Part shown: one piece after another, positions 9,200-24,282 of the stretch
Numbering within the stretch: position 1 is the stretch's first letter
How the letters are laid out: each line of letters starts with the position of its first letter
Source of the DNA: a bacterium
Lineage (GTDB): Bacteria > Auribacterota > UBA3054 > JAPLST01
DNA: 64,000 nt
Reading direction: 5' to 3'
NCBI GenBank assembly: GCA_026417575.1
Contig: JAOACZ010000128.1
Span: forward strand, 5,127 to 69,126
The notes under the pieces: generated by a model
Seen by the model: only the letters and a program-made list of their open reading frames with translations
Databases searched by the model: none
What the model was told of the DNA's origin: nothing
Program-made: the position numbers and the translations under genes

Positions 9200-9228
9200 A
9201 GTATAGTCCTTCCTGTCGTACAAGTCAA
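9200..9228 (-). promoter_or_regulatory. Sigma70-type promoter for the GH94-like gene
   Basis: Minus strand reads TTGACT (9228-9223), a 17-nt spacer, then TATACT (9205-9200). Confidence 0.5.
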
Positions 9229-9373
9229 AAGGAGCGCGAACCACTAGGTCGGGCACGGTTGATTTCGCCACCGCAGCGACGGAAGTGATACAGCGCCACG
9301 AACATAAGCCCGCCGGGCCGGCATTCTCTCACAGGTGCAATACGTAAAAGCAGCCGTCACTGTGCGCAGTCAT

Positions 9374-9402
9374 TTGACGAAGTGCGATGAGTGTGATATA
9401 CT
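9374..9402 (+). promoter_or_regulatory. Sigma70-type promoter for the MBL-fold hydrolase/CryPro gene pair
   Basis: TTGACG (9374-9379), 17-nt spacer, then TATACT (9397-9402) preceded by TGTGA. It sits about 40 nt upstream of the ATG at 9444. Confidence 0.55.
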
Positions 9403-9443
9403 AGACTGGACAGTTACCATACTTACCCCACGAGTGTCCGACG

Positions 9444-10172
9444 ATGGATCGTTTCTTTTGGCTCGCTCCATGTGCTCTGCTTCCCTTTAGTGCCAACGCC
9501 GCAGCACCCTTCCCCAGCGATGACATCACCACATCAGTAGGTGTGGTGCGCATTTCGTTCCTGGGGCACGGCACCCTCATGCTCACGCATGGTCAAACGG
9601 TCATCCACGTGGATCCGTTTGGGCAGGTGGCTGATTACGCGTCGTTGCCCAAAGCCGATCTTATTCTCATTACACACGAACATTTCGACCATCTCGATCT
9701 GGCCGCAATCAAGAAAATTCGTACCGACAAAACGGCCATCATTGCTCCACCCATCTGTGCGAGCAGCCTGCCTGAAGCAATCCTGCTGCGCAACGGCGAG
9801 CACACCACCAAAGCCGGTATTGTCATCCACGCCGTGCCGGCGTACAACATCAAGCATGAACGTGCGCCTGGCAAACCGTTCCACCCACGCGGCGTGGGGA
9901 ACGGCTACATCCTCACCTTTGGTGACACTCGTCTTTACATCGCCGGTGATACGGAAAACACACCCGAAATGAAAGCTCTGACCAACATCACGGTCGCTTT
10001 TCTCCCAATGAACTTACCCTACACGATGACACCCGAAATGGTTGCCGACGCGGCGCGGGCATTCAAGCCAAAAATTCTCTATCCATATCATTACGGCGAT
10101 ACAGATCCAACACGGCTGACAAAGCTGCTGAAAGACACGGGCATTGAGGTGCGGATTCGCCCGATGCGATGA
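9444..10172 (+). CDS. Secreted MBL-fold metallo-hydrolase
   Basis: 242 aa with an N-terminal signal peptide (MDRFFWLAPCALLPFSANAAAP) and the metallo-beta-lactamase motif HEHFDHLD. Confidence 0.7.
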   Translation: MDRFFWLAPCALLPFSANAAAPFPSDDITTSVGVVRISFLGHGTLMLTHGQTVIHVDPFGQVADYASLPKADLILITHEHFDHLDLAAIKKIRTDKTAIIAPPICASSLPEAILLRNGEHTTKAGIVIHAVPAYNIKHERAPGKPFHPRGVGNGYILTFGDTRLYIAGDTENTPEMKALTNITVAFLPMNLPYTMTPEMVADAARAFKPKILYPYHYGDTDPTRLTKLLKDTGIEVRIRPMR

Positions 10173-11650
10173 GCAGCGCCACGGTCATTTTTCCGCACCA
10201 GTTGTTCGCAGACCATCCCGGGTTAGATCGTGGGCGGCGCATCGTTCTGGTTGAAGATCAGCTCTTCTTTCGTGATTGGCGGTACCCCGCGCGGTTTCAC
10301 AAGCACAAGTTGATCCTCCATCGCGCGAGTATGCGCGCCTACGCCACCCTGCTGCGCCAGCGTGGCTACGATGTCAGCTACCTTGAGTATGCGCCGGACC
10401 GCGAAATGTCCTATTTGTTTGCGCCTTTGCGCCGCGCAGGTGTGACTGAGATAGTCGTCGCGGAGGTGTGTGACTTCATGTTGGAAAAACGCGTGCGCCG
10501 CTACGCTAGGCAACACGGCATACGCATTACCGAGCTGTCGTCCCCTGGGTTTCTCACCCCACGTGATTGGCTGCTCAACCGACTACAAGGCAAGCAGCGC
10601 CTCAGCCTGACATCTTTCTACATTGCTCAGCGCAAACGTATGGGCATCTTGTTGGATAACGGCAAGCCACGCGGCGGCCGCTGGACGTATGACACCGCGA
10701 ATCGCCAACCGCTGCCCAAGAACCTTCCTGTTCCCCCACTTCCAACTATCTCGCCCTGCCCAGAGGTACGCGCGGCGATAGCCTACGTCACTCAGCACTG
10801 GCCTGACCACCCGGGTGAACCGTCGGCATTTTGGCTTCCGATCACACACGCAGCTGCAGCACAATGGCTCCAGCACTTTCTAGAACACCGTGTGATGCTG
10901 TTCGGCCCTTACCAAGACGCCATGCGTCGGGAGGAGCCTTTCCTCTTTCACTCAGTTCTCTCACCTCTGCTCAACATCGGCTTACTCACGCCCACCCAAG
11001 TGCTCGAGGCCGTGATAGCCGCCGCGCGTGAAAAGGATGTACCCCTTCCATCATTGGAGGGCTTCATCCGTCAGTTGATAGGTTGGCGTGAATTCGTCCG
11101 CGGCGTTTATCTTTTGCACGGCGTACGCCAGCGCACCAGTAATCACTGTGCTTCCACGCGGCCTATGCCAAGCGCGTTCTATCACGGAACTACGGGCCTC
11201 CTGCCCTTTGACACTGTCGTCGCGCGCGTGCAACGCCTGGCCTATTCTCATCACATTGAACGACTTATGATATTGGGGAACCTCATGCTGCTCTGTGGCA
11301 TTCATCCTGACGCAGTTTATACCTGGTTTATGGAGCTGTTCCTGGATGCCTACGATTGGGTCATGGTCCCAAACGTGTACGGCATGAGCCAGTATGCCGA
11401 TGGTGGCTTAATGACCACAAAACCCTACGTGTGCAGTTCACGCTATATCCGCAGGATGAGTGATTATCCTCGCGGTGCCTGGTGTGAAGTGTGGGATGCG
11501 CTCTACTGGCAGTTTATTGATCGGCAGCGCGCCACCCTGGAGGGCAGCCCGCGCACCGCAGTGATGCCGCGCATGTACGATCGGTTTACACCTTCGCGCC
11601 GAGCCGAGCTTGCACGCAAAGCAGAACAATTTCTCGCGCAGCTTACGTAA
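10169..11650 (+). CDS. Cryptochrome/photolyase-related protein (COG3046 'deoxyribodipyrimidine photolyase-related', CryPro-like)
   Basis: 493 aa. The C-terminal FAD-binding photolyase-like region reads LFGPYQDAMRREEPFLFHSVLSPLLNIGLLTP. Its ATG overlaps the upstream stop in an ATGA junction. Confidence 0.6.
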   Translation: MSSATVIFPHQLFADHPGLDRGRRIVLVEDQLFFRDWRYPARFHKHKLILHRASMRAYATLLRQRGYDVSYLEYAPDREMSYLFAPLRRAGVTEIVVAEVCDFMLEKRVRRYARQHGIRITELSSPGFLTPRDWLLNRLQGKQRLSLTSFYIAQRKRMGILLDNGKPRGGRWTYDTANRQPLPKNLPVPPLPTISPCPEVRAAIAYVTQHWPDHPGEPSAFWLPITHAAAAQWLQHFLEHRVMLFGPYQDAMRREEPFLFHSVLSPLLNIGLLTPTQVLEAVIAAAREKDVPLPSLEGFIRQLIGWREFVRGVYLLHGVRQRTSNHCASTRPMPSAFYHGTTGLLPFDTVVARVQRLAYSHHIERLMILGNLMLLCGIHPDAVYTWFMELFLDAYDWVMVPNVYGMSQYADGGLMTTKPYVCSSRYIRRMSDYPRGAWCEVWDALYWQFIDRQRATLEGSPRTAVMPRMYDRFTPSRRAELARKAEQFLAQLT

Positions 11651-12107
11651 CTTTTCCAACACTTCAGTCGGTTTTCGGCCAGAAGCACGCACCGCATGAC
11701 CTCTGCGCGGTTCGCTACGGCACAAAGTGTGGTGTCCCGCACTTTGACAGAGCTGACGCCGTGCTGCTAGGAATAAGAGTGTGTGTCGCACATCACATTA
11801 GGATAAGAATGTTCCTCCGACACTCAGAGGTTTTGGCACCGCTGATCCGTGTTGATCACGAGCGTGGGGTACACATGCTGCGTATTTACCCTGACAGTCC
11901 CCGGTGCCTCTTTTCGGCAGGCACACATACCCTCACTTATTCTCGGACCGCGCATCAGACGCAGAACTGGAGTGTGTCTGTTTTGGCCCGCAGCAGACGC
12001 AGGGGGTTCCAGATACCGCTACCGGGTAGTGTAGGAACGCAGTCCGAGGGCTGTGAAGCCCTGGAGGCTGCAACCTGTTGATGATGCTCTAACGCCAAAG
12101 CACTGAT

Positions 12108-13021
12108 TCACGCGCGGGTCTGCGCGCGCATAGGCGCGACAGCAAAGCCATTCGGAAACTCCTCTGAGAGTTGGTATTCGGCGACCCGTTCACAGAATTT
12201 CAAGTACTCAATACCGTCCTTCGCTGCCGTGTCGGCATCGGGGATCATGGGCGCGCTTTCAATCGTGCAGTAGCCTGTGTAGTTGATTTTTTTTAAGGCG
12301 CGCATGACGGCCTTGAAATCCACTGTGCCATACCCCGGGGTCAGTGAGTTCGAGTCGCGGAAGTGTACATGCCAGAGCAGATCGCCCGCGTCCATCACAG
12401 CTTCGTAAGGATTGAGCTCTTCAAAGTTAGCGTGAAACCAGTCAAGTTGGATGCCGATATTGTCACATCCGGTGGCACGGATCATGCGGCGGTGGTTCAT
12501 GGCGGTGTTGACATATTTGCCCATCTCCAAATGGTTGGTGGCCTCAAAGACGAGGCGCACGCCGCAGGTGCGCGCGTACTCGGCCATGCGGCGCAAGGCA
12601 TCCACCGCGATGGCGGTACACGCGGCCACATTGTCCGCAGTGATGTCGGCATGAATGGCCGCGGCGACCGTGACCAGGGGCGCACCCACTTCGGCGGCAA
12701 AATCAATCGAGGTTTTTGTTTCCGCCACCGCCAACTCGGCCGTTCGTGGTTCCGTGAGCGTTTTGAAGGTTGGCGAATAGGGATCCCACATCGCGCCCCA
12801 GCATTCATTAATGCAAGAGATCTCCATGCCGAATTCCTGTTTGAGCGCGCGGTGGGTGCGGGCATAGGCCGCCATGCTGACGCCCATCCCATAGCGTCCT
12901 TTCGGCGGCGTGAGTTCGATGGCATCATAGCCGAATTTCTTCAGGCGCTGATACGTCCGTTCCGGATGCAGGTAGGTTTCTTCCTGCCCGAAAGTCAACT
13001 GAAAATAGGAGTATTTGAAGG
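12108..13021 (-). CDS. Sugar phosphate isomerase/epimerase (xylose-isomerase-like TIM barrel)
   Basis: Start set at MPPFKYSYFQ (ATG 13021) with an AAGGAG RBS. The 304-aa product has the AP-endo2/xylose-isomerase-like fold (HVHFRDSN, IESAP). The ORF track's N-terminal extension lacks an RBS. Confidence 0.6.
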
Positions 13022-13050
13022 GCGGCATAGGTGGCTCCTTATGCGGGCGC

Positions 13051-14463
13051 TTAGTTGTGACGAAACACTTCCCATCCCAGATACTTCTCGGCCGCTTCCG
13101 CCAGGGCTTTTGCCACATGGCCACGCACCATGGCGACGTGATGCTCGAAGCCGTTTTGGCACAGCATGTCCAGCAGCTCCTGCAGGCGTTCCACATAGCA
13201 GACTGCCACGCCACCCACCGTGTCGGTGGGATCATTGGTGAATTCGCCTTCGCCGACGTACATTTTGATCACGCCGCGCGTGTCGTCGGTGGAGATTTTC
13301 AGGAAGGTCATTGGGCCGGGCGCTACATTGCCTTTGACGGCGCCAAAGCAGCGGTCCGCACCTAGGGCTGCGCCGAGAATGTCGAGCGTGCCGATCTCGC
13401 GGATGTGGCCGATGAAACTGCGCGGATAGTTTGAACAGTGGATGTTAATACACTTGTTTTCCTCATCATCGTAGTTGTTATTCCAGTCGAGGTAGCCCGG
13501 GGCATTACCTGTGGCCAGGCGCAGCATGTACATAGAGAGCGCGCCCATAACGTCCGTTTCGCAAGCACACGGCGTACCTTTTTCACCGAGCATGCTCATC
13601 GTGAGACAGGCCGCACAGCCGTAATTGTTCTGAATTGAAGCCCAGCATTGCATTGCGGCGGCGTCGCACTCATTGGCGGTGATCCATTGCTCGACAGCAA
13701 GGGAGAGTTTAGCCTGGCGCAGCAGGTGCTCGCTGGGCGTGCCCGGCGCGACCGGCCCGTAGGCCTGAATTTCGGCCACCCGCTGGCGCACAGCGTCGGT
13801 TTCGCCCATTGCCTGCGCCGCCGCAATAATCTCTGACAAATCCACAGCGCACACGTGCACGCCTGAAGCTTCGAGCAGCTTCTCGGAGAAACGCACGGTA
13901 TTAAATGGATCGGGCCGCTGGCCGATCATGCCAATGCGCGCCGTAGAAATACCCTTGACGATGCGGCAGACAGTGGCGAAGTAGTGCAAATCCGCGGTGA
14001 ACTCTTCGCTAGCAATATCGCACGTGTGGCGCGAGGTGTTGGTGATAGCGAAACCGCGCTGGTATAGATTGTTGCACACGGACAGTTTGCCGCAGAAGGC
14101 GTCGCGCCGGCGCGCCATGTCCATCTGAGCGACGCGGTCGGGGCTGGCCTGCACCATGATCGGCACATCCAAGCCGGCACGGGTGATCGTCTCAACCACG
14201 CCCAGTTCATCGCCGAAATTCGGCAAGAGGACAAGAATTCCGTCAATCTCCTCCGCGTGCTCGCGGAACAGCTTAGCGCAGATCTTGGCATCCGCTACTG
14301 TCTCGATGGCTCCGTGCGGTGTTGCATCTTCGGGTGGCAAAATAGCGCCGTAGCCAAGTTGGGCAAGTTTAGCTAGAATGTCCTTGCGCCCTTGCACGGC
14401 CAACGAGGCCGGGAAAAAGCCACGCGTGCCGACAATAACGCCAAATGTTACCCGTGTTTTCAT
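13051..14463 (-). CDS. L-fucose/L-arabinose isomerase family protein (FucI-like)
   Basis: 470 aa. Start set at MKTRVTFGVIVG (ATG 14463) after an AAGGAG RBS. Confidence 0.55.
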   Translation of the reverse strand: MKTRVTFGVIVGTRGFFPASLAVQGRKDILAKLAQLGYGAILPPEDATPHGAIETVADAKICAKLFREHAEEIDGILVLLPNFGDELGVVETITRAGLDVPIMVQASPDRVAQMDMARRRDAFCGKLSVCNNLYQRGFAITNTSRHTCDIASEEFTADLHYFATVCRIVKGISTARIGMIGQRPDPFNTVRFSEKLLEASGVHVCAVDLSEIIAAAQAMGETDAVRQRVAEIQAYGPVAPGTPSEHLLRQAKLSLAVEQWITANECDAAAMQCWASIQNNYGCAACLTMSMLGEKGTPCACETDVMGALSMYMLRLATGNAPGYLDWNNNYDDEENKCINIHCSNYPRSFIGHIREIGTLDILGAALGADRCFGAVKGNVAPGPMTFLKISTDDTRGVIKMYVGEGEFTNDPTDTVGGVAVCYVERLQELLDMLCQNGFEHHVAMVRGHVAKALAEAAEKYLGWEVFRHN

Positions 14464-14588
14464 GGGAGACTCCTTGAGGGGTGAAAAGGATGGTGGTGGC
14501 CGCTGCACAAAAAAACGTAGGCAAGAAAAGGCGGTGCGCACGCTCGGTGCGGCGCACGGAGAGACGGCGAGAGAGCACTAGCAGCGCG

Positions 14589-14909
14589 TTATTTTGTCGT
14601 ATCCTCATAATCAAACACGAGCACGGATGCGAGCCCATCTTCTAGCGCTGGGATGACAACATCAGTGGCGAACGCGACGTGCGCCGGGTGCGCCAGGTAG
14701 CGTTCGCGCGCCTCAATGCTGTCAAATTCCACGCGGATACCTTCGCGAAAACCCTTGTCCAAGTTTTCCGTGCTGTTGTTGTACACCCAGCGGAAGCTGC
14801 GGATTTCGGGAATAACGGCTTGCAGTGCGGCAAACTCTTCGCGCAGGCGCTGGAGCGTGGCGGAGTCCAGCTCCCTCTTCCACTTGAAAAACGCGTAGTG
14901 GACAATCAT
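14589..14909 (-). CDS. Dabb-type stress-responsive A/B-barrel protein
   Basis: 106-aa ORF; 4-bp overlap with the upstream VOC gene. Confidence 0.5.
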   Translation of the reverse strand: MIVHYAFFKWKRELDSATLQRLREEFAALQAVIPEIRSFRWVYNNSTENLDKGFREGIRVEFDSIEARERYLAHPAHVAFATDVVIPALEDGLASVLVFDYEDTTK

Positions 14910-15430
14910 GATTCCTCCTTGAATGCCGCCTGTTCTGGCGGCGGGAAGATGCGTTCTGGCGGATTGCGGCGTTTCGGGCGCTCAATCAGTTCGAGTGTGG
15001 TGCCGATCAAGTTTTCCGTGTCCAAATAGGCATAGTGGCCGTCATCGTCGGGGCCGAAACCGGCGCCATCTTGCGTCATCACAAGCCCACACGCGCGCGC
15101 TTGTTCGAGCGCGCGCTGCATATCGTTGGTCAGCACGCCGATGTGATGCACGCCGTAGCCGTGTTTTTTAACGAACTCGGCGTACACGGTGTCGCCTTCC
15201 AACGGTTGAATCAACTCAATGCGCATCGCGCCCACGTTGGCCAGCGCCACGCGCATGCGATACTCGGTCGGCTTGCCGTTGCGGGTCATGCGCTTTACCA
15301 GCGGTTTACCGTAGGTGTAAATGTGCCATGGCCCGACGCCGAACCGTTCCCAGTAATTCCGCACGGCCGCATCTAAGTCCGGGACGATGATTGCAATTTG
15401 CGCAATGTTATCCAATGGAAATGTCCTCAT
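14906..15430 (-). CDS. VOC/glyoxalase-family protein
   Basis: 174 aa with paired beta-alpha-beta-beta-beta modules (HIGV...; HHIGVLTNDMQRA). Confidence 0.5.
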   Translation of the reverse strand: MRTFPLDNIAQIAIIVPDLDAAVRNYWERFGVGPWHIYTYGKPLVKRMTRNGKPTEYRMRVALANVGAMRIELIQPLEGDTVYAEFVKKHGYGVHHIGVLTNDMQRALEQARACGLVMTQDGAGFGPDDDGHYAYLDTENLIGTTLELIERPKRRNPPERIFPPPEQAAFKEES

Positions 15431-15440
15431 TCCTGACTCC

Positions 15441-16505
15441 TCACGCGCGGCAAGAGCGCTCTACGTGATTGGTGAACACCACTTTCAGCGCGCGGCCTTC
15501 CGTGGCTTCCTTGACGCCGTCGGCAAAGGCGCTGAGTGGAAAACGGTGGGTGACGAGTTTGTCGCCGGGGATGCGGCCGCTGGCCAGCAACTGCAAGGCG
15601 CGCCCGTGATGGCGCGGAGCAAAGATCGTCGTGCCCATCACGTGCAGGGCGTTATAGTGGATCAGGTTGGTATTGAGGCCGGGGCGGCAGCGGTCGGCCG
15701 GCAAGCCGCCGAAGAGCAGTACCCGGCCGCCTTTGCGGGCGATTTCCAGCGCCTGCACTTGCGATTCAGGCGCGGGGTTGGCTGTGATCACGACGTCGGC
15801 GCCACGCCCGCCCGTGATCCGGCGCACCTCTTCAACAAGATCTACCTGCGCTATGTTTATCATGTGGTCAGGATGGAACTGTGTGCACAATTGCAGCCGC
15901 TCCGCAGACACGTCGGCGATAATCACAGTAGTTGCGCCGCGTGCGCGCGCCAACAACAGGTGAAGGCAGCCGACGGGCCCGGCGCCCAGCACCGCCACCG
16001 TGTCGCCCAACCCGACGCTGCCCGTCTCCTGCGCGTGAATGCACGACGATAGCGGCTCGGCCACAGTCGCCACCACCGGGTCGAGCCCGGCAGGAATGCG
16101 CCGAATCGTCCCGCGGTGCACGGCCTCGGCCGGTATGGCCACATATTCCGCAAAACCGCCTGGCCACACTTGCGCAATCTCACGGTAGCCGCTGCACAGC
16201 TCGAACCGTCCTTCCACGCAAAACTCACACACGCCACAATACACAAGCGGCGCAACGGAGAGCAGCTCGCCGCGCTGCCACGGCCCGCTGTACTGCGCGC
16301 CTGTTTCCACTACCACACCGCTAATCTCCTGCCCCACGACAAACGGCAGGGTAACTCGGTGATGGCCGTGACGCAACGTGCGCAAATCGCCGCCACACAG
16401 CCCGCACGCCAGGACCTGCAGCAACAGACCGCCAGCCGGGCAGGCGGGCGTTTCCAGTTCCACCAGCCCGTACTCACCAGGCGCGCGAATCAGAATTGCT
16501 TTCAT
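15441..16505 (-). CDS. Zn-dependent alcohol/polyol dehydrogenase (sorbitol/L-iditol dehydrogenase-like MDR)
   Basis: Motifs [19 protein letters not shown] and GAGPVG. Start chosen at MKAILIR (ATG 16505), which forms an ATGA overlap with the upstream stop. Confidence 0.7.
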
Positions 16506-17794
16506 GCGGGGTGCAACCATTTGTCCTGCTGACGGCGTAATTCAGCGATGAATGTATCTGTGCGTGCCATAAAATTCGCGGTGGTCATCGGCTGGCCTGC
16601 TGGAATATCAGCCGTGGCCCTGCCGCCCGGGGCAAGTCCGATGGGAATCATGCCGCCTAAACGTGCCTCAGCATACGTGTAAATGCGCCCGTAAATGTCG
16701 GCGCTGCCAATACCGCCCACTTGCTCACCTGCGCGAATCGGCCGCTTCGCCACGCACACCACTTCCGCGTGCATTGTCTGCGCCGCCACGGTCACTTCCT
16801 TCAACAGCACCGCCTCGGCGATGGATTGCGGCGTTTCAATGTCGCACAAGTGATACGGGCGGAAGAGCAGATAGTACGGCCCGCGCGCCTTCGTAATGAA
16901 CTCCATGTCCTTGCGCATGCGCGGGCTGTCGGTGTAGACGATGGCAAATACCCCGGGCGCGATGGCGCCAGTCGTGAAGTCCACGCAGCCGCGCCGCGAG
17001 AAGATGCCGCCGTCAGCTTTGGGGATGAATGTGGTCACCAGTTCATCTAATTCAGCCTTCGGGCCGTGCATGCCCGGCACGTCAGGCAACAGCCCGGTGG
17101 CGTTGGCAACTGCGGCCATCTCCACCATCGTCTTGGTGCCGTCTTTGAATGCTGCCAGCATTTTGGGATTCATGTCTTTGGCTGCGGCTTCTGCGGCACA
17201 ACGCTCAGGCGTAGCAGCGAAATCGATCGGATTGTTCTTGCCCTTGCCCAGACAAATCACTTCAAACCCCATCAGCACGGCTTGTTCGTACAGCATGGTA
17301 CACACACCCGGCTCGTCGCCCGAGGCGCCTGTGTACACCGCGCCGCGCGTGCGCGCCAAGTGGCTCAGGTACGCACCCACGGTGACATCCGTCTCAGCAT
17401 TGAGCATGATGATGGGTTTACCGTAATGAATAGATTCGTAGGCCACGCGCGCGCCGATGTCCGGCACGCCTGTGGCTTCCACATTGGCTTCAAGAGCTTC
17501 TAGGCGCGTCAGCAACAACGCGTCGGCCGTCACCAGCCGTTTACCCTGTCGCAGCGCGTCCTGCGCTTCGTTTTCGTTGTCAGTGACAACGATTTCGTCG
17601 CGCGGACACCCCAGCTCGCACAGCGTGTCTATGCCGCGCTGCGGCGCAATGTCGGCAATCGCGGCCACACGCATGCCTTCAACGCGCGCGACTACGTGCG
17701 CCAGCCCCGAACCCATCTGCCCGCAGCCTACAATGCCTACCCGTATCGGATCGTTCTGCCCAGCGCGTGCCCGCAACTTCCGTATCAACTCCAT
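16502..17794 (-). CDS. NAD(P)-binding oxidoreductase of the COG4091 'predicted homoserine dehydrogenase' family with a C-terminal SAF domain
   Basis: Start MELIRK (ATG 17794) after a GAGGAG RBS; Rossmann motif [10 protein letters not shown]. Confidence 0.5.
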
Positions 17795-17804
17795 GCTACG
17801 CTCC

Positions 17805-19361
17805 TCATATTGAACGTGCCCGCAACCGGGCCAGTTCACGGTAATCCTCTTTGACGTGCTCGTACAACCGCTTGTACAACGCAAAATATTCTTGATACCG
17901 GGCATGCGCCGCCGCATCCGGCTCAAGTGGTTCGACTAGCTCCACCCATTCTTTCGTCACTGAGAAATCCTTAAACACGCCCGTAGCAACACCGGCCAGG
18001 ATGGCATCGCCGTAGGGCGCGCCAACGCGGCTCTTTACCAGCACCGTGGGCACGTTAAACACATCAGTGATGATGCGGCGCCACAGCGCGCTCTTCGCCC
18101 CACCTTCATTCAACACAATCGGTCCACGAATTTGTTGCCCCGCCGCCGTGATGATGCGAAACGAATCGTACAGCGCGTACGCCACGGCCTCCATGGCAGC
18201 GCGCGCCACGTGCCCGCGGGTGTGGTTGAGCGACAGGCCGAAGATCACGGCGCGCGCGTGCACGTCCCAGATGGGTGTGCGCTCGCCCATCAAGAATGGT
18301 AGCATCACCAGCCCGCCGGCGCCGGCCGGCACGGCCGCCGCTTCACGGTTGATCAGCTCATACGTGTCCGTGCCGGTGGTGCGCTCTGCCGCCTTTTCGG
18401 CTAGGTAGAAATTGTCACGCAGGTAGCGCAGAAGCTGCCCGCCAGTCGTAGTCGTCGGTATGGTAACGAACACGGGCTGCTCCACCGTATCGGTCGTGTA
18501 ATTGCACGCAATCATACTGTCATGGAACGTCGGCGCGGTGTGAATAATGCCGAAATTGCCGCACGTGCCAAGATTCATTTGAATGTCACCATCCGCAATG
18601 GCGCCGGCGCCGCTCCAGCCAGCGTTGCAGTCCACCTGGCCGGCGGCCACTGGCGTTCCCGGCGCCAAACCAGTAGCTTCCGCGGCTGCGGCCGTTACTT
18701 CGCCCACCACGGCCGTACACGGATACAGGTCCGGAAACAATTCACGCGGGATGCCCACAGCGTCCAGCATAGGTTGGTTGAAGGTACGACCCAACAAATC
18801 ATACGCCACGCCGTAGAATGCCGCGCCGGAGTAATGCCCCGTGGCCACACCGGTTAGTTTCAGCGTAATGAAGCCGTCAATCGTCAACGCCTTCCACACA
18901 CGGCGAAACTGATCCGGGCGATTATCTCGCTCCCACATCAAGTTGATGATCGAGGGGTGGTCGTCGAGGCGGTTTTTGGTGACCGCGAATACGCGCGCTT
19001 CGCCCAGCAGATCTTTTACAGCCTGCACCTGGCGTGTGGCGCGGCGGTCCATCAGATTGTAGGCATTGCCAATCGGATTGTGCGCGCGGTCCACCATCAC
19101 CAGCGATGGCAGCGCGGACGACACAGCAACGCCACCAATTTCCCGGGCGGGGACACGCGCCTCGGCCAGCACCTGGCGGATCATGCGGCAGGCGGCGTCC
19201 CAGTAGCGTGCTGGCTCATGCTCCGACCAGCCTGGATGTGGTGTGAGAATAGGAAACTCTTCAAACGCGTAGGCACGCGTGCGGCCTTCACAGTCAATCA
19301 GCGCCGCTTTCGCGCCGCCGGTGCCATAGTCCAAGCCGAGTAGGTAGGGTCGCATTGTCAT
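17805..19361 (-). CDS. FGGY-family carbohydrate kinase (xylulokinase-like)
   Basis: 518 aa. N-terminal [15 protein letters not shown] phosphate-1 motif and FGGY C-terminal domain. Confidence 0.75.
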
Positions 19362-19416
19362 TGTGTGTCACCGTGGTATTTCCAGGTTCACGGGAGCCTC
19401 TCCCTGGAAGTAGCCC

Positions 19417-19445
19417 ATTTTACAAAATACATCGTAGAATTTCAA
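19417..19445 (-). promoter_or_regulatory. Sigma70-type promoter for the sugar-catabolism operon
   Basis: Minus strand reads TTGAAA (19445-19440), a 17-nt spacer, then TAAAAT (19422-19417), about 50 nt upstream of the kinase start. Confidence 0.5.
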
Positions 19446-19974
19446 GTAGATCTTGCATCCAAAAAAAACGCGCAACGTCCCTACGGCGTGTCACCCATTA
19501 TCGACAGCAGCGCATAGGTCGAATGAGAAAAAGCACAGCGATGGGTATAACCTGACTGGCCGAAACGATCCGTAACGCAGCTGTATGTGTCGTTACGCGG
19601 GACTGATAATGGAGTAAGGATAAGGACAGTAAAAATCCTGCTAACACGTCCCTCCTGTCAGGGGCCTGGTACCATAGGCACGCAAAAGACCGTGCGACTG
19701 CATCGGGGTGCGCAACGTAAAAAGTTTAGCATGTGCTGCTCATTGTGTTCAGCAAGGGCGTAAAGAAACTGCTGCTACCGACCTCACAGGCAGCGCTCTA
19801 CAGCTATCAGGGGCTTTTACCGCTCCTACGGTACGTCATCGCCACACCAATTAGGCGCGGCAAAACAGTCCCGGTGGTCACGCCCCGGATTACCGCACTC
19901 GGCGCAGTTGATGCAGAGCGCTGAGTGTTTTTTCGCACAGTGTTTGCAATGGCCGCAACGTTCTGGATGAGCGG

Positions 19975-21810
19975 CTAGTCTGCTTTTGCTGGCTCCAAGC
20001 GTGCGGGGCTCAACTTGTAGAGGGGAACATGCGCTTTAGCAGTCTGCATGCTCTTTCGGCATACTGCGTGTCTCCGTTGGAACGTGCGCATGAGCAGAAG
20101 GCAAACGCCACAGAGGAGCACGTGACCCGGCTCGGGGATATCGCCCACAAACACAGCGCTCATCGGCCCCCAGTTGCCCAGAGCGTCTTGACCGCGCACA
20201 TATACCAGCGCCTCCGGTCCGCCCAACATCGTGCTGTCCACATAGCCCACGACAGGTTCATAGACTGAGTCAAATGCTCCATCGGCGGCACTCATGGGAA
20301 TTGGCACCACCTGGGGATGAGTGAATGGAAGCAAAGCGCACTCTGCAGCGGCGACGAGATTGCTTCCCGTGCCGCGCTCGTCAATCACGGCCGAAACAAC
20401 AACCATGTTGCTCGGCGTCGGGACGAGTTCGAGCGCCAGCGCATCAGGCCCGGCAACTAACATGTATGGCGCGCGGGCGATCTTCGCAGCATAGATGAGA
20501 GCGCCGCGATTGGTCGGCCACTGGTCAGCATCAATGGCACTGTATGCCGGCATGAACGAAGTGCCCACTTCGAAGGTAAAGGCTGGAATACCGAGCTCGC
20601 CGTAGGCCCAATCCGTGCTATCACCGCTGGTCGAGTAAAGCGACGTACTGCTTTGACCAGCGCGGTAGCGATTGTAGCGTGCGAACTTTAATCCGATGGC
20701 GCGGAGCTCATTTGCATTCGGCGCTGGCGCGGCTGTGTCGCCCCACGGCCACAGGACGTAACGGCCGTAACTATGCAGCGAGATCAATAACCCGGTGGTG
20801 TTACTCGGGGCAGGGTCAGTGAGCAAAGGACCGCGCTGATCGGGAATCAGATTAGTTACCAACGCTTGCAGGGCGGCCACTTCCGGCTCTGACGCAGGGG
20901 CTGTTCCGCAGTAGACAAGACTACACGGAGCGGTGCTAATGCCGACGGTGCCCCAATGAAATGAGTGGTTGCGATTAAGGTCAATCCCATACTGGGCCCA
21001 GTCATCGGGTGGCCATGCGCTACAGCGATCCTGATGGGCATTTTTACGCTGCATGAAGGGCGGGCCATTAAAAGGCGGCAGCGTGCCGAGCGAGACGAGC
21101 CAATGTGCTTCGGGATTAACTAGTGGCACAATCCATGTTTCTTGTTCGTTGACAAGCCACGTGGCGTCTGGATCGTGTCCGTAGCCTTCAAGGAGCCAGT
21201 GCGCGAAGCGGATGGCCAATTCGGGCGTGGTAATTTCACGGGCATGAATTGCGGCCATCAGGAAGAAAACGGGCTTGGGGCCCGGCGTGTTGGTGGCGGT
21301 GATGCACAGGGCAAGCAGGTCATGCAACTCTTGTGTTTGCCCGCCTGGCGTTACGGTGCCACCTACTGACTTACAGTAGGCGTCGCCGTAATCAACGAGC
21401 CGAGCTAGGTGAGGGTAGGCAGCTGTCAGCGCGTTCAGGTGAGCGACAATCTCCTGCGCGGTTTTGTAGGCACCGTAAAACTCCTGCGGTGCGAAGCCCG
21501 CCGGCCGGCGCATAAAACGCGCCTGCGGGTGGGTTAGCTCGGCACTGCGTTCAGCGTCAATGCTCACACGCCATCCTTCGGCTTCCAGTTGAGCCAGCGT
21601 GCGGGGAGAGGCCGTGACGAGGACGTATCCCTCCTCGCGATCATTGAATTCATGCACATCGTAGCGTGCCACCAGGTCCTGCAACGCCGCCTCGGTCGGA
21701 TAATAGACGCGCGCCACGTAGAGCGGGGGCAGCTGTACGAGTTCTTGCTGCGCTGCAGCGACGAAGACGTTCAGGAGTAGGGCATAACCGAGGGCAAGGG
21801 AACACCTCAT
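19975..21810 (-). CDS. Secreted M14 zinc carboxypeptidase with a PEP-CTERM-like C-terminal signal
   Basis: Signal peptide MRCSLALGYALLLNVFVAAA and M14 motifs HAREITT and DLNRNHSFHWG. The C-terminus reads IPEPGHVLLCGVCLLLMRTFQRRH followed by about 30 further residues. Confidence 0.7.
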   Translation of the reverse strand: MRCSLALGYALLLNVFVAAAQQELVQLPPLYVARVYYPTEAALQDLVARYDVHEFNDREEGYVLVTASPRTLAQLEAEGWRVSIDAERSAELTHPQARFMRRPAGFAPQEFYGAYKTAQEIVAHLNALTAAYPHLARLVDYGDAYCKSVGGTVTPGGQTQELHDLLALCITATNTPGPKPVFFLMAAIHAREITTPELAIRFAHWLLEGYGHDPDATWLVNEQETWIVPLVNPEAHWLVSLGTLPPFNGPPFMQRKNAHQDRCSAWPPDDWAQYGIDLNRNHSFHWGTVGISTAPCSLVYCGTAPASEPEVAALQALVTNLIPDQRGPLLTDPAPSNTTGLLISLHSYGRYVLWPWGDTAAPAPNANELRAIGLKFARYNRYRAGQSSTSLYSTSGDSTDWAYGELGIPAFTFEVGTSFMPAYSAIDADQWPTNRGALIYAAKIARAPYMLVAGPDALALELVPTPSNMVVVSAVIDERGTGSNLVAAAECALLPFTHPQVVPIPMSAADGAFDSVYEPVVGYVDSTMLGGPEALVYVRGQDALGNWGPMSAVFVGDIPEPGHVLLCGVCLLLMRTFQRRHAVCRKSMQTAKAHVPLYKLSPARLEPAKAD

Positions 21811-22000
21811 ACTCCTAGTATACCACTATTACGTGGTGAATTGTTAGCGCGAGAGCAGGGTGTACCGTGAGGCGTGGTTAGGCTGTGCGTGTGTGGAGGC
21901 GCTGAGCGCTAGGCTGGCGACACTGTTTGCAGCGGCGCGTGCGGAGGAGCCAAAAGCGCGTTTAGCCCTGGCGTAATGTTTCCGTCGAGCGGAAACGCGG

Positions 22001-22029
22001 TTGCACTTTTGAGAGACTTTGAGTATAAT
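22001..22029 (+). promoter_or_regulatory. Consensus sigma70 promoter for uvrD/pcrA
   Basis: TTGCAC (22001-22006), 17-nt spacer, TATAAT (22024-22029). The first ATG downstream is at 22057. Confidence 0.6.
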
Positions 22030-22056
22030 TTGCTAGTTGAAGATAGGTATACTGCA

Positions 22057-24282
22057 ATGAGCGCTAGGCATACCCGACAAGGAGGGAGCATCTCCGTGGG
22101 CGGCACGTCACGTGTTGTCGGGGTGGATTTTCGCGCGGCGCTGAATGAGGTGCAATATGAGGCAGTAACGCACGGGGAGACGCCGTTATTAGTTGTCGCC
22201 GGAGCGGGCAGTGGCAAGACGCGGATACTGACGTATCGTGCGGCTTACTTGGCGGCGCAAGGGGTGCCGCCGGAGCAGATCTTGGCCGTCACTTTTACGA
22301 ATAAGGCGGCGGATGAGATGGCACGGCGGGTACACCAGCTTGTGAATGCGCGTGTTCCTGTGTCAACGTTTCACTCGTTGTGCCTACGGATGTTGCGCGA
22401 GCAGAGTGCGCGGATTCCGTATAGGCCCAACTTCGTGGTGTACGATAAGAGTGACCAGCTTGCGCTGATCAAGGAATGCATGCGACGTGTGCATGTTTCG
22501 GAGAAACACGCCAAGCCGCGTGCGTTTGCGAATGCCATCAGTCGTGCGAAGGATCGTTTGCTTGATGCAGCCCAATTTGGCGCGACGGTAAAGAGCTATT
22601 TAGAGGAAGCGGTTGCGCTGGTGTACCGGGAGTATGAGCAGGCGTTGCAGCGGGCGAACGCGATGGATTTTGACGATTTGATCATGCAATGCGTGCGGTT
22701 GTTGGAGCGGGTACCGGAGGTAGCGCAGTATTATCAGCAACGTTACGCGCACGTACTTGTGGACGAATTTCAAGACACGAACTACGCGCAGTACGTGCTG
22801 ATGAAGATTCTTGTGGCACCGCATCGGCGAGTAAGTGCGGTGGGAGACCCGGACCAGTCTATTTACCGCTTTCGCGGGGCAGAGATCCGGAACATTCTTG
22901 ATTTCGAGCGTGACTTTCCCGAGGCGCGGGTGATCACGCTGGAACAGAATTACCGGAGCACGGCGACGATTCTTGCCGCGGCCAACCGGGTCATCGCGCA
23001 CAATGTGGAGCGCAAGGAAAAAAGACTGTGGACACAGAATCCGGCAGGTGTGCCGGTGCAAGTATACCGCGCAGCGGACGAACATGATGAGGCGCGCGAG
23101 GTGGCGGCGCGTATACAGGCATTGGAACGAAATGGTGCGATTCGTTCGCTGCGCGATGTGGTGGTGTTTTATCGTGTGCATGCGCTTTCGCGCGTGTTTG
23201 AGGAGGCGTTTCGGCACGCACGTTTGCCGTACGTGATTGTGGGGGATGTAAGCTTTTATCAGCGGCGCGAAATAAAGGACATTGTGGCCTATTTGCGCGT
23301 GCTGGTGAATCCTGCAGACGACGTAAATGTGCGGCGGGTGTTGAACGTGCCGCCACGGGGGATTGGGGAAGCGACGGAGGAGATGATTGCGGAATGTGCG
23401 CAAGCGCGAGGGTGCTGCTTTTACGCGATGTTGGAGCAACCGGAGCAGTTGCCGCGGATGACGCCGACGTTGCGGCGGCGGTTACAAGAATTCACGGGGA
23501 TGATCGCACGCCTGCGCGCGGCGCGCGGGGAGGCGTTGCCGACGGAGCTGATTCGGCGGGTGCTGGACGAGACGAACTACATCGCGCAGATGTGCGGCTC
23601 CGATGATGTGCAGGATGTGGCGCGGCGAGAGAATATTCAGGAATTTCTCTCTGCGGCTGCAGACTATGAGAATAGCTGTCCGGAAACGGTGGCATCGCTC
23701 GAGGGCTTTTTGCATTCGATTGCCCTCACGGCGGAAATTGACACCTGGAACGACAGCGCTGACGCGGTGACGTTGATGACGATTCACAATGCCAAGGGGC
23801 TAGAGTTTCCGGTTGTCTTCATGGCGGGGCTGGAAGAGGATTTATTTCCGCACTACAACTCGCTGGAAGATCCTACGGACATTGAGGAAGAGCGGCGGTT
23901 ATGTTACGTTGGCATGACACGTGCGCAGGAACGGCTGATTTTGACCACGGCGGCACATCGGACTATTTTTGGGCTGCGCAAGGTGCGTGAACCTTCGCGT
24001 TTTTTGAGGGAATTGCCGGCGGAGGACGTTGAAACGACGTACAGTACGCAGCATGAGTTGATCAGCGCGCCAGAACCGCGGGCGCGGGTGTCACGTGCCA
24101 CGCCTGGCACAAATGGCGAGTACACGGCGGGAATGCGTGTGATGCATCATGTGTTTGGTCCGGGGCGGATCGTGTCTGTATGCGGCTCGGGCGACGCGGC
24201 GCGCTTAACGATCGAGTTTGAGCGCCTGCCGACGCCGAAGGTGCTTGTGGCGCAGTACGCGAAATTGCGGGTGGTAAAATGA
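22057..24282 (+). CDS. uvrD: ATP-dependent DNA helicase UvrD/PcrA
   Basis: Motifs LLVVAGAGSGKTRIL, VLVDEFQDTN and QNYRST plus full C-terminal UvrD-like domains. Start set at the ATG at 22057 because the promoter lies inside the track's 5'-extended ORF. Confidence 0.8.
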   Translation: MSARHTRQGGSISVGGTSRVVGVDFRAALNEVQYEAVTHGETPLLVVAGAGSGKTRILTYRAAYLAAQGVPPEQILAVTFTNKAADEMARRVHQLVNARVPVSTFHSLCLRMLREQSARIPYRPNFVVYDKSDQLALIKECMRRVHVSEKHAKPRAFANAISRAKDRLLDAAQFGATVKSYLEEAVALVYREYEQALQRANAMDFDDLIMQCVRLLERVPEVAQYYQQRYAHVLVDEFQDTNYAQYVLMKILVAPHRRVSAVGDPDQSIYRFRGAEIRNILDFERDFPEARVITLEQNYRSTATILAAANRVIAHNVERKEKRLWTQNPAGVPVQVYRAADEHDEAREVAARIQALERNGAIRSLRDVVVFYRVHALSRVFEEAFRHARLPYVIVGDVSFYQRREIKDIVAYLRVLVNPADDVNVRRVLNVPPRGIGEATEEMIAECAQARGCCFYAMLEQPEQLPRMTPTLRRRLQEFTGMIARLRAARGEALPTELIRRVLDETNYIAQMCGSDDVQDVARRENIQEFLSAAADYENSCPETVASLEGFLHSIALTAEIDTWNDSADAVTLMTIHNAKGLEFPVVFMAGLEEDLFPHYNSLEDPTDIEEERRLCYVGMTRAQERLILTTAAHRTIFGLRKVREPSRFLRELPAEDVETTYSTQHELISAPEPRARVSRATPGTNGEYTAGMRVMHHVFGPGRIVSVCGSGDAARLTIEFERLPTPKVLVAQYAKLRVVK

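Follow-up and report, generated by a model that had tools for sequence, protein, structure and literature searches.

Which substrate a seven-gene operon of unusual composition would break down, and by what chemistry, is the question raised by the minus strand at positions 12108-19361 of the 64,000-nt stretch of bacterial DNA analysed here (the window). An ORF and Pfam check recovers all seven co-directional genes (Table 1), in the order and with the families given by a previous sequence-only reading, whose observation is confirmed and whose interpretation is partly supported. The genes form a real operon, tightly packed, sugar-catabolic, of non-textbook composition and served by a single promoter. 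This promoter, confirmed where it had been proposed, matches 10 of 12 consensus positions and is the top sigma-70-like match in a scan from 11.6 to 20 kb; six promoter-like sites were found in the scanned region against 3.4 expected, so that agreement with the consensus is in itself weak evidence for a promoter.

Table 1. Features of the operon, in the order of transcription (positions in the window).
Feature	Position	Strand	Remarks
Sigma-70-like promoter TTGAAA-17 nt-TAAAAT	19417..19445	-	56 nt upstream of kinase ATG; read directly
FGGY-family sugar kinase, xylulokinase-like, 518 aa	17805..19361	-	FGGY_N + FGGY_C
DXR-II/DRL-type NAD(P)-dependent oxidoreductase, 430 aa	16502..17794	-	PF21135 DRL_cat, 208.8 bits
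Zn-dependent medium-chain dehydrogenase (Zn-ADH), 354 aa	15441..16505	-	ADH_N + ADH_zinc_N
VOC/glyoxalase-fold protein, 174 aa	14906..15430	-	Glyoxalase_4, 72.6 bits
Dabb (dimeric alpha/beta barrel) protein, 106 aa	14589..14909	-	PF07876, 68.4 bits
Spacer, 125 nt	14464..14588	-	Seam between the two modules
AraA/FucI-fold aldose-ketose isomerase-like protein, 470 aa	13051..14463	-	Fucose_iso_C sole Pfam match
Xylose-isomerase-like TIM barrel, ketose-3-epimerase-like, 306 aa	12108..13028	-	AP_endonuc_2, 129.5 bits

Overlaps of the ATGA type, previously described as several, exist at two junctions only (DRL stop/Zn-ADH start and VOC stop/Dabb start), the remaining intergenic gaps being 10, 10, 125 and 22 nt, and a GAGGAG ribosome-binding site precedes the DRL ATG at 17794. 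The 125-nt spacer, which could conceivably act as attenuator, terminator or internal promoter, contains a hairpin (GTGCGC...GCGCAC) with T-runs after it and an AAGGAG ribosome-binding site; its fold is no better than that of shuffled sequence (z = -1.2), and an Rfam search of the spacer gave no match. The flanking genes (M14 peptidase, UvrD, a photolyase-related protein and a metallo-beta-lactamase-fold protein) are unrelated. No transporter or regulator was found within about 10 kb of the operon, in line with the earlier claim, and no GH140 gene in the 64-kb window.

The key gene of the operon is the second one. Its product had been described as a COG4091 SAF-domain oxidoreductase; it is an oxidoreductase, but the SAF match falls under the cut-off (19.8 bits against 21) and its PF21135 assignment had been missed. 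More precisely, it is a member of the DXR-II/DRL family, a relative of a skeleton-rearranging enzyme of the isoprenoid pathway. The DRL of Brucella abortus (3UPL/3UPY, PF21135), its only solved relative, aligns end to end over residues 3-427 of the window protein (E = 2.6e-95, 40% identity), sharing the domain architecture, the Rossmann GxGxxG and the anchor and signature residues. However, the window DRL falls in a separate clade and lies inside a sugar-catabolic operon (kinase, Zn-ADH, VOC, isomerase), not being a stand-alone enzyme of the MEP pathway. The residues that anchor fosmidomycin or the substrate phosphate (K191, K193 and T229) and those that separate active DXR-II from inactive DLO1/2 (G121, H250 and R320) (PMC3847144) are all conserved in it.

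The conversion of DXP to MEP is the sole activity demonstrated for this family, and the MEP pathway of some bacteria depends on DXR-II alone (PMC3847144). The DRL could then be the host's isoprenoid DXP reductoisomerase, placed in a sugar operon by accident. This would be extremely improbable, as the synteny with kinase, Zn-ADH and VOC under SorC control is kept across phyla, an ATGA overlap couples the translation of DRL to that of the adjoining gene, many related loci hold two DRL paralogues, and DXR-II is found too in organisms without the MEP pathway (PMC3847144).

A comparison of gene neighbourhoods, the check suggested by the sequence-only reading, covered 85 related loci, 57 of them of at least 15 kb and 58 of the closest (window) type. 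Dozens of loci show the order kinase-DRL-ZnADH-VOC(-FucI-like-TIM) again, with homologues 55-81% identical from at least eight phyla, including Planctomycetota, Kiritimatiellia, Bacteroidota, Chloroflexota, Spirochaetota and Bacillota, which argues that the arrangement is more than chance. No characterised operon was found to match that of the window, which is one copy of an uncharacterised sugar-breakdown cluster spread over many bacterial phyla. DRL, Zn-ADH and VOC are the invariant core; the kinase is present in 52/58 closest-type loci and VOC in 49/58 (after Zn-ADH in most loci, 58-83% identity). The isomerase (37/58) and the TIM barrel gene, which always travels with it, are optional. A Dabb homologue occurs in one other locus only (L032) among the 85, and the Dabb gene is a lineage-specific insertion. 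Then, of the COG4091, Dabb and VOC trio that had been set outside any textbook route, the non-textbook composition stands, but the three do not form a unit.

Regulators of the SorC family are present in 46/85 loci, along with CUT1 or CUT2 sugar ABC transporters. The window copy is stripped-down, without transporter, regulator or glycosidase, whereas its relatives carry SorC, ABC transporters and GH140; the absence of the first two is therefore peculiar to this copy. Of the 89 nearest ORFs outside the core, 11 fall in GH140 'Apiosidase' (PF13204), more than in any other family; it is the only recurrent glycosidase there, and GH140-bearing loci amount to 19/85 overall and 16/57 of those of at least 15 kb, in six phyla. 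For example, the closest relative (L001) has a copy two genes upstream, and in a Bacteroides MAG the cluster is flanked by two copies; the Planctomycetota copies match the Pfam model weakly (52 bits). Genes for GH95 and sulfatases also lie close to some related loci.

A cluster built around a DXR-like skeleton-rearranging enzyme would probably straighten a branched plant sugar such as apiose. Our tentative preference is that the operon degrades a branched-chain five-carbon sugar, D-apiose from plant pectins being the most probable candidate. In this scheme, the AraA/FucI-fold isomerase would convert the aldose D-apiose into the achiral ketose apulose, the Zn-dependent dehydrogenase would reduce apulose to one apiitol enantiomer (2-C-hydroxymethyl-D-erythritol), and the xylulokinase-like FGGY kinase would phosphorylate the terminal CH2OH next to CHOH, giving the 1'-hydroxy analogue of methylerythritol phosphate (MEP). 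The DXR-II/DRL-type enzyme would perform the DXP-reductoisomerase reaction in reverse, with NAD(P)+ oxidising a branch CH2OH to an aldehyde and the skeleton then rearranging (alpha-ketol, by retro-aldol/aldol) to linear D-xylulose 5-phosphate for the pentose-phosphate pathway. Compared with DXR, the direction would be opposite, oxidative and from branched to linear, and the whole would be redox-neutral with one ATP spent. What the substrate is, in which order and direction the steps run and what stereochemistry they follow are inferred, the chemistry drawing on the established DXR mechanism together with our own reasoning.

Several features bear on this scheme. E174M, F178Q, P346A and V351H are specific to the window-type clade with respect to DXR-II, and window-type DRLs are polar at 178 (Q) and 351 (H, N or Y) where DXR-II has F and V, which may suit a substrate with one more hydroxyl. 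The kinase, XylB-like, and the Zn-ADH, of the polyol/ketose dehydrogenase type, would both fit the scheme. The kinase has XylB as its top NCBIfam model (291.9 bits against a cut-off of 380), with FGGY kinases, xylulose kinase and LsrK as neighbours in the PDB. The closest NCBIfam models of the Zn-ADH are Tdh, IolM, GatD and IdnD, all under cut-off; Tdh and IolM score best, which disagrees with the previous label of sorbitol-DH-like, and its PDB neighbours are Tdh and sorbitol dehydrogenase. The isomerase-like protein has no match in the PDB by sequence or by profile, and it is nearest to the copies in L094 and L095, not to that in L001. Its AlphaFold model (pLDDT 90.1) resembles L-arabinose isomerases (TM 0.82) and L-fucose/D-arabinose isomerases (TM 0.72-0.76) in Foldseek, at 11-14% identity; the FucI likeness claimed for it then holds for the fold only. 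This full AraA/FucI fold implies a free aldose as the substrate.

The isomerase also bears on the L-fucose, L-rhamnose or other 6-deoxy-hexose pathway first suggested for the operon. Its Fucose_iso_C domain and the GH95 and sulfatase genes near some related loci would agree with such a route, which is nonetheless very unlikely: class II aldolase, lactaldehyde reductase, mutarotase and permease are absent from the operon, the kinase scores 106.9 on the fuculokinase (FucK) model against a cut-off of 470.9 and 37 on the rhamnulokinase (RhaB) model against 528, and the isomerase does not match the NCBIfam FucI model. The L-fucose, L-rhamnose and pentitol candidates are thus unsupported. As in araBAD and fucPIKAO, an AraA/FucI-fold isomerase and an FGGY kinase share one operon, but the epimerase AraD or the aldolase FucA is missing, all equivalog models stay under cut-off, and the isomerase is distant from both AraA and FucI.

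Other observations count against the apiose scheme. The catalytic His of the window Zn-ADH is lost, as it reads GQE where about 70 orthologues keep the catalytic GHE motif. VOC, weakly similar to methylmalonyl-CoA epimerase, is a conserved core gene without a role in the scheme, which assigns no step to the TIM barrel and Dabb proteins either. GH140 has a single characterised activity, and the window itself lacks GH140, transporter and regulator. The relatives' transporters resemble those of E. coli for apiose in a generic way (34-43% identity; RbsB-like by NCBIfam). Moreover, the configuration of C1-phosphorylated D-apiitol is opposite to that of MEP, so that a stereochemical reset via achiral apulose is needed.

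The TIM barrel protein adds a further difficulty. Described before as xylose-isomerase-like, it is closer to ketose 3-epimerases than to xylose isomerase: it scores highest on the models of IolO (119 bits) and psicose 3-epimerase (83 bits), without reaching either cut-off, and in the PDB it has D-tagatose/D-psicose/L-ribulose 3-epimerases and TM0416 as neighbours. Apulose, whose C3 is quaternary, cannot be the substrate of a ketose 3-epimerase. Together with the isomerase and the XylB-like kinase, this protein would be enough for an unbranched route from aldopentose to xylulose-5-P, for example from D- or L-arabinose through a ketopentose and its 3-epimer to the 5-phosphate, the DRL being a polyol- or sugar-phosphate dehydrogenase without rearrangement. 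The Listeria DRL gene sits where gut operons have sorbitol-6-P dehydrogenase, and a KpsF/GutQ-like arabinose-5-P isomerase accompanies a paralogous DRL' module, which would agree with this. Such a pentose or pentitol route is, however, unlikely, because it would make the invariant core of DRL, Zn-ADH and VOC redundant and would rely on the optional isomerase and TIM barrel; the DRL residues for catalysis and substrate binding in the rearranging reaction are fully conserved, and the GH140 linkage is left unexplained. IolM and IolO/TM0416 of the Thermotoga maritima myo-inositol route are best or near-best NCBIfam/PDB neighbours of genes 3 and 7, but the scores are far under cut-off (164 against 450 and 119 against 300), and IolN, IolG and other inositol genes are absent from the operon.

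The contexts of true DXR-II genes are catabolic as well, which counts in favour of the scheme. In Rhizobiaceae, Terrarubrum, Priestia and Listeria these genes share their operons with either a glucitol-type PTS or a kinase and PDH/acetoin-DH-like E1E2E3. Agrobacterium, S. meliloti and Aminobacter have an ABC transporter and/or kinase, DRL and E1a-E1b-E2(-Lpd-LipA), Terrarubrum a glucitol-type PTS with DRL-E1-E2, and Priestia DRL with an FGGY kinase and a PDH-like complex. E1/E2 come straight after DRL in 4/4 alphaproteobacterial loci inspected, adjoin the Priestia locus and are also found in 7-8 loci of the window type, the co-directional L019 among them; L019, L006 and L005 join the same core to PDH-like E1/E2. 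In the gut-type (glucitol PTS) operons of Listeria, Ligilactobacillus and Terrarubrum, the DRL homologue replaces the polyol-phosphate dehydrogenase beside GutM, EIIA/B/C and SorC, which supports a polyol-phosphate substrate for the family. The window differs from these by its soluble FGGY kinase in place of a PTS and by the added Zn-ADH, VOC, isomerase and epimerase-like genes.

From these contexts, the kinase could make MEP from 2-C-methyl-D-erythritol or DXP from 1-deoxy-D-xylulose, and the DRL would interconvert MEP and DXP. The DXP would be degraded, via Zn-ADH and VOC here and elsewhere by a PDH/acetoin-DH-like complex to acetyl-CoA and glyceraldehyde-3-P, or salvaged into isoprenoid, thiamine and PLP synthesis. 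We regard this as possible but doubtful. It relies on the only activity demonstrated for the family, and every DXP/fosmidomycin-binding residue is conserved. XylB-type kinases phosphorylate deoxyxylulose, and the sorbitol PTS reportedly imports methylerythritol in Salmonella, in work by Testa and coworkers from 2004 (cited in PMC3994034). Also, xylulose-5-P as the product would leave PDH-like E1/E2 without a purpose, so that a methyl-ketone product (DXP) fits L019, L006 and L005 better. Nonetheless, E1/E2 are absent from most window-type loci, residues 178 and 351 differ from DXR-II, and a polyol would need neither aldose-ketose isomerase nor ketose epimerase nor glycosidase, whereas the isomerase is frequent and GH140 enriched. 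Free methylerythritol is not known to abound in anoxic sediments as a source of carbon.

For the preferred apiose reading, the literature search returned, from the library searched, no paper linking DRL or DXR-II to apiose or catabolism, and the operon matches no characterised apiose pathway. These pathways (Carter et al. 2018, as summarised in PMC13001218, PMC11747546 and PMC12994016; E. coli ST131 cluster ECSF_RS02670-02715) share with the relatives' loci a SorC regulator, a CUT2 ABC transporter (with DUF2291 in L003), an FGGY kinase and, via GH140, the link to plant-pectin degradation. By contrast, the transketolase AptA/B, the SDR pair, ApnO, OiaK and the RuBisCO-like protein are absent from the window operon, the ApsI and ApnO families being compared by description only; the kinase shares 22% identity with AplK, the apulose kinase of E. 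coli, and is not its orthologue, and DRL, the central enzyme family of the operon, is in none of the routes described. The nearest solved relatives of the Dabb protein are plant HS1 and olivetolic acid cyclase. As for the chemistry proposed for DRL, the known oxidative apiose route also uses an enzyme of oxidation plus hydroxymethyl migration, ApnO.

The seven ORFs of the operon region all run in one direction, and their starts were picked from homologue alignments together with ribosome-binding sites. Pfam matched every one of the seven family names given in the sequence-only reading, and the single promoter described there, TTGAAA-17-TAAAAT at 19445-19417, is the top sigma-70-like match within 11.6-20 kb. 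The genes overlap by ATGA at two junctions, the remaining gaps being 10, 10, 125, and 22 nt. No transporter or regulator lies close to the operon, as had also been noted, the neighboring genes being unrelated, and this copy has no glycosidase gene either. A search of Rfam over 11-21 kb returned no riboswitch, leader, or other element, and a terminator scan 3' of the last gene gave nothing convincing. The operon is best filed as sugar-catabolic, its pathway being undescribed and centered on a DXR-II-type enzyme.

Genes of the operon in window coordinates, in order of transcription
Gene product	Coordinates	Strand	Assigned by
FGGY kinase	17805-19361	-	Pfam
DRL-type oxidoreductase	16502-17794	-	Pfam PF21135
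Zn-ADH	15441-16505	-	Pfam
VOC protein	14906-15430	-	Pfam
Dabb protein	14589-14909	-	Pfam
Fucose_iso_C protein	13051-14463	-	Pfam
AP_endonuc_2 TIM barrel	12108-13028	-	Pfam

The DXR-II-type enzyme is the product of the second gene, a deoxyxylulose phosphate (DXP) reductoisomerase-like (DRL) protein that scores 208.8 bits against PF21135, the 'oxidoreductase DRL' catalytic domain (gathering cut-off 27). Its sole solved relative is the DXP-reductoisomerase-like enzyme of Brucella abortus (3UPL), residues 10-436 of which align with residues 3-427 of the window DRL (E = 2.6e-95, 40% identity). The family comprises DXR-II, for eleven members of which the formation of methylerythritol phosphate (MEP) was demonstrated, and DLO1 and DLO2, both of unknown function (PMC3847144). 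In the same work, fosmidomycin or the substrate is anchored by Lys191, Lys193, and Thr229, and DXR-II is set apart from DLO1/DLO2 by Gly121, His250, and Arg320, also by T229 and Val351 (PMC3847144). The anchoring residues K191, K193, and T229 are kept in the window DRL and in nearly all of 86 homologues of its own clade (window-type), one of them having Ser at 229; G121, H250, and R320 are likewise kept in the window DRL and nearly all orthologues, H250 being missing in a few. Position 351 is His in the window DRL and Asn or Tyr in relatives, versus the Val of DXR-II. The window-type clade carries Met, Gln, Ala, and His at positions 174, 178, 346, and 351, versus Glu, Phe, Pro, and Val, so that the dimer-interface residues E174 and F178 are replaced. 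Four DRL clades can be distinguished, with a mutual identity of ~40-45% and the same active-site residues.

A protein search returned thousands of homologues, the nearest (81%) being from a Kiritimatiellia MAG, and scanning species-representative genomes added 80 loci with identities of 55-68%. These belong to Planctomycetota, Bacteroidota, Chloroflexota, Spirochaetota, Bacillota, Verrucomicrobiota, KSB1, Calditrichota, and one deltaproteobacterium. With the seven window proteins as tblastn queries, the order kinase-DRL-ZnADH-VOC is found to recur, with the isomerase-like gene usually after or near this core and the TIM barrel gene often present. The comparison of neighborhoods around the FucI-like and DRL genes (the latter called COG4091 in the sequence-only reading) reveals a context that recurs across phyla. 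One related locus (L094) has the arrangement SorC-isomerase-TIM-ABC transporter-kinase-DRL-ZnADH-VOC, and another (L095) holds the isomerase-TIM pair on its own. The Dabb gene was detected at one further locus only among 85. That the DRL is a biosynthetic DXR placed here by accident, a possibility to be set beside both the MEP-making relatives and this recurring gene order, is hardly credible.

Neighboring ORFs were clustered, and counts over 85 loci were obtained with the aid of Pfam and tblastn. SorC-type regulators are found at 46 loci, a KpsF/GutQ-like SIS isomerase at 30, DUF6786 at 11, and DUF4432 at 10; Peripla_BP_4 ABC transporters accompany ~25 of the 83 clustered loci. Of the 89 nearest ORFs outside the core, 11 belong to PF13204, 'Apiosidase' (GH140), more than to any other Pfam family. 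Genes of GH140 type occur, across six phyla, at 19 of the 85 loci, the count being 16 when only the 57 loci of 15 kb or more are considered; for a rare GH family no more than 20 kb from a randomly chosen gene, ~1% would be expected, this being a rough estimate and not a computed value. In the closest relative of the window, a GH140 gene is located two genes upstream, and in a Bacteroides MAG two GH140 genes and a GH95 gene surround the cluster. The sole characterized GH140 enzyme acts on rhamnogalacturonan-II, from which it frees chains that contain D-apiose (bioRxiv 10.64898/2026.03.13.711244).

The SIS isomerase is part of another module, paralogous to the first, with the order SIS-ZnADH'-DRL'-FGGY'-RpiR, where primes denote the paralogues. 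This module (L086 15838-20296, L087 15657-21293, and many of the loci L008-L083) often lies beside the first one, sometimes sharing a single isomerase gene with it, and includes the RpiR regulator and DUF6786, its identities being ~40% for ZnADH', ~40% for DRL', and 25-29% for FGGY'. Also, in several relatives, the stretch from the transporter or GH140 genes to the kinase gene encodes conserved proteins of ~400-690 aa without a Pfam match (L086 6270-8330, L087 6344-8326, and, in the closest relative of the window, L001 4229-5449 and 7030-8418); they are possible candidates for glycosidases not yet described or for accessory pathway proteins. In a locus from Verrucomicrobiae (L019 12837-20885, minus strand), the opposite-strand genes beside the cluster encode two aminotransferases, a Zn-ADH, a split transketolase, an AraC regulator, and a DUF1537-type (four-carbon acid sugar) kinase, which looks like another uncharacterized sugar-acid locus.

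Regarding the isomerase-like protein, neither sequence nor profile searches gave a match in the PDB, and a fold search succeeded. Its AlphaFold model (pLDDT 90.1) has the three-domain AraA/FucI fold, and Foldseek pairs it with L-arabinose isomerases at a TM of 0.82 (E = 1e-21) and with L-fucose/D-arabinose isomerases at 0.72-0.76, the identity being 11-14%. Because this confident model superposes on the AraA/FucI folds, the protein is placed in the free-aldose isomerase superfamily, of which it is a divergent member. Orthology to FucI or AraA was rejected, no NCBIfam model of either having matched; its sole NCBIfam match is the sulfoquinovose isomerase model, at 106 bits versus a cut-off of 700.

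The kinase scores 291.9 bits with the XylB model TIGR01312 versus a cut-off of 380.25 and, by this measure, is XylB-like and not an XylB equivalog. In the Zn-ADH, the nearest types of which are Tdh, IolM, GatD, and sorbitol dehydrogenase, both ADH domains are present and the Cys of GLCGGD is kept. However, residue 59 is Gln (CAG, 16331-16329, minus strand) in place of the catalytic-zinc His, giving GQE in this copy only, whereas GHE is retained in ~70 orthologues and in the ZnADH' paralogues. This could be a consensus or assembly error of the MAG, a polymorphism, or an inactivating defect. The VOC protein resembles uncharacterized glyoxalase-fold proteins and, weakly, methylmalonyl-CoA epimerase. 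Finally, the TIM barrel protein, although nearest to the ketose 3-epimerases and TM0416/IolO, falls below their equivalog level (PsicseEpim 82.9 versus 300, IolO 119 versus 300), its PDB neighbors DTE, DPE, and TM0416 aligning over the C-terminal half with E ~1e-19.

Judged by these models and domains, the operon fails the tests for membership of the fuc, ara, lsr, or known apiose systems. The sequence-only reading had proposed an L-fucose, L-rhamnose, or pentitol-like route. A fucose or rhamnose route would agree with the Fucose_iso_C domain of the isomerase-like protein, but an L-fucose operon (fucPIKAO) does not hold, the kinase being far under the FucK cut-off (106.9 versus 470.9), the isomerase being no FucI orthologue, and no aldolase or permease gene lying in or near the operon; we consider this route very improbable. 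The analogy with the AI-2 (lsr) system, which would combine a kinase, a Dabb protein, and dicarbonyl chemistry, was dropped because all models remain below cut-off (LsrK 194 versus 528, no LsrF, no LsrG match for Dabb) and Dabb is not conserved.

For apiose, a transketolase route is described in Pectobacterium and E. coli (PMC13001218), and oxidative ApnO/OiaK/RLP routes are also reported (PMC11747546, PMC12994016). The window differs from the former in that its kinase shares only 22% identity with AplK, the apulose kinase of E. coli, and no AptA/AptB match is present, and from the latter in that the domains of ApsD, ApnL, ApnO, OiaK, and the RuBisCO-like OiaC/OiaX (list per PMC11747546) are found in none of the seven proteins. 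For the kinase, orthology to its counterpart in the apiose cluster of E. coli was rejected, the likeness of transporter and regulator being generic only. No characterized apiose pathway, as far as the known sets are described in the papers citing them, has the enzyme set of this operon.

The DRL family was also followed elsewhere. On plasmid records, tblastn found 90 homologues, and the DXR-II proteins of Agrobacterium, S. meliloti, and Aminobacter (~73% identity to the Brucella enzyme) are directly followed by E1-alpha, E1-beta, and E2 genes. The Agrobacterium and S. meliloti loci add LpdA and LipA, and also a SorC regulator, a CUT1 ABC transporter, and a PfkB kinase. In Priestia, the DRL is accompanied by SorC, an MFS transporter, an FGGY kinase, and a PDH-like complex, and in Terrarubrum a DRL-E1-E2 unit faces a glucitol-type PTS with GutM, EI, and SorC. 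The E1/E2 proteins score at or slightly below the PDH equivalog cut-offs, and similar genes join window-type clusters in 7-8 loci, a Verrucomicrobiae MAG having a co-directional E2-E1-kinase-DRL-ZnADH-VOC array. Residues 178 and 351 (Q with H/N/Y versus F with V) were tried as a means of telling loci with PDH-like E1/E2 or GH140 genes from loci without them and gave no clean separation. The loci combining classical DXR-II (the clade of the Brucella enzyme) with PDH/acetoin-DH-like E1-alpha/E1-beta/E2 (L090 8974-16274, L091 8974-16188, L096 7968-12635, L097 7974-12708, and L089 1-12212) are carried by alphaproteobacterial and Priestia plasmids, the E1/E2 genes of Priestia being adjacent to DXR-II.

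In Listeria monocytogenes (L092 6796-11608) and Ligilactobacillus salivarius (L093 8001-12797), the DRL gene lies within a glucitol-type PTS operon with SorC, GutM, and EIIC/B/A, in the place of the polyol-phosphate dehydrogenase, and in L. salivarius fsa and tkt come after the operon. An unbranched pentose or pentitol route, in which the DRL would be a plain dehydrogenase, is to be weighed with this position and the XylB-like kinase on one side and the kept DXR-II active-site residues on the other; we regard it as quite unlikely. Functional DXR-II is found in organisms without the MEP pathway, and both the reason for this and the role of the related oxidoreductases are questions raised by PMC3847144. 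The PTS or transporter-kinase, E1/E2, and SorC contexts, the shared residues, and these organisms make the DRL family look catabolic: a polyol would be taken up and phosphorylated, by a PTS or by a transporter and a kinase, and the DRL would then convert the polyol phosphate. For the classical clade, this suggests, in our view, a route from methylerythritol through MEP and DXP to acetyl-CoA and glyceraldehyde-3-P. Methylerythritol is reported to be imported by the sorbitol PTS (Testa et al. 2004, as cited in PMC3994034). A methylerythritol/deoxyxylulose route in the window would likewise fit the shared active site and the E1/E2 genes of some window-type clusters, but the window type adds an isomerase predicted to act on a free aldose, a Zn-ADH predicted to act on a ketose/polyol pair, and a link with GH140, and we consider such a route unlikely.

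Our own tentative reading, plausible on the gene content but far from assured, is that a branched C5 sugar, with apiose as the first candidate, would be catabolized through a reverse DXR-type step; the general part (branched C5 substrate and reverse step) carries a larger share of our confidence than apiose itself. By the established DXR mechanism, the reverse reaction requires a quaternary carbinol carbon that bears a primary alcohol, and an adjacent CH(OH)-CH2-O-phosphate arm; apiitol 1-phosphate corresponds exactly to MEP carrying a hydroxyl on its methyl group. D-apiitol-1-P has, at the CHOH, the configuration opposite to MEP. Apulose, the ketose isomer of apiose, is achiral, and therefore its reduction can give the apiitol enantiomer that matches MEP. 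Apiose would then be converted to apulose by the isomerase, apulose to apiitol by the Zn-ADH, apiitol to apiitol phosphate by the kinase, and apiitol phosphate to D-xylulose-5-P by the DRL, in a redox-neutral scheme that would use four conserved genes. The scheme gives no role to the VOC protein, the epimerase-like TIM barrel, or Dabb, and leaves the occasional E1/E2 genes unexplained. What probability remains goes to something not yet thought of. Our literature search found no paper tying DRL or DXR-II to apiose, apiitol, or methylerythritol catabolism.

A joint reading, possible but more doubtful, is that the DXR-II/DRL family would be primarily catabolic, its members acting as 'branched pentitol-phosphate dehydrogenases (isomerising)'. 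The window-type clade would then serve a fifth, redox-neutral pathway for D-apiose, linearizing the branched skeleton, and the classical clade would pass 2-C-methyl-D-erythritol, by way of MEP and DXP, to a dedicated PDH-like complex splitting DXP into acetyl-CoA and glyceraldehyde-3-P. This would explain DXR-II in bacteria without the MEP pathway, a puzzle that becomes directly testable. If true, the only known alternative DXP reductoisomerase family would work in sugar breakdown, and its rare rearrangement of the carbon skeleton would yield an ordinary pentose phosphate from a branched plant sugar. A new apiose route would also exist in anaerobic polysaccharide degraders (Planctomycetota, Kiritimatiellia, Bacteroidota, Spirochaetota, and Anaerolineae) that recycle pectin and the cell walls of seagrass and duckweed. 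Moreover, functional hypotheses would become available for thousands of metagenomic genes that are labeled 'homoserine dehydrogenase-like', 'SAF domain protein', or 'fucose isomerase' at present.

The window operon itself reads, by its identities, as a mosaic. Genes 1-4 show 80-83% identity to the Kiritimatiellia locus, whereas genes 6-7 show 77-82% to other metagenomic lineages versus 67% and 76% to that locus. At the seam (14464-14909) lie the gene for Dabb, rare among the loci, and the 125-nt spacer, which contains a T-run and a hairpin, this hairpin folding no better than shuffled sequence.

In the surrounding window, the GC skew of the plus strand is +0.14 to +0.34 (4-kb windows) over 20000-56000, irrespective of gene orientation, with a magnitude of up to 0.66 at third codon positions. 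The operon falls in a near-skewless part (1-20000; also 56000-64000), sharply unlike the adjacent 35 kb, the skew switching abruptly in the 165-nt gap between an M14 peptidase gene (19975-21810) and uvrD/pcrA (21976-24282). The pattern is not symmetric, unlike that of an origin, and an inversion, a recent acquisition, or a chimeric contig are possible causes of the switch. Peptidase genes (M14, M28, C10, M20, and M29) are numerous in the window, which also contains a sulfatase gene (31677-33194), a tyrosine recombinase gene (2646-3569), and three long minus-strand ORFs of 1087, 461, and 477 aa without a Pfam match (5867-9130, 28772-30157, and 40525-41958, respectively).
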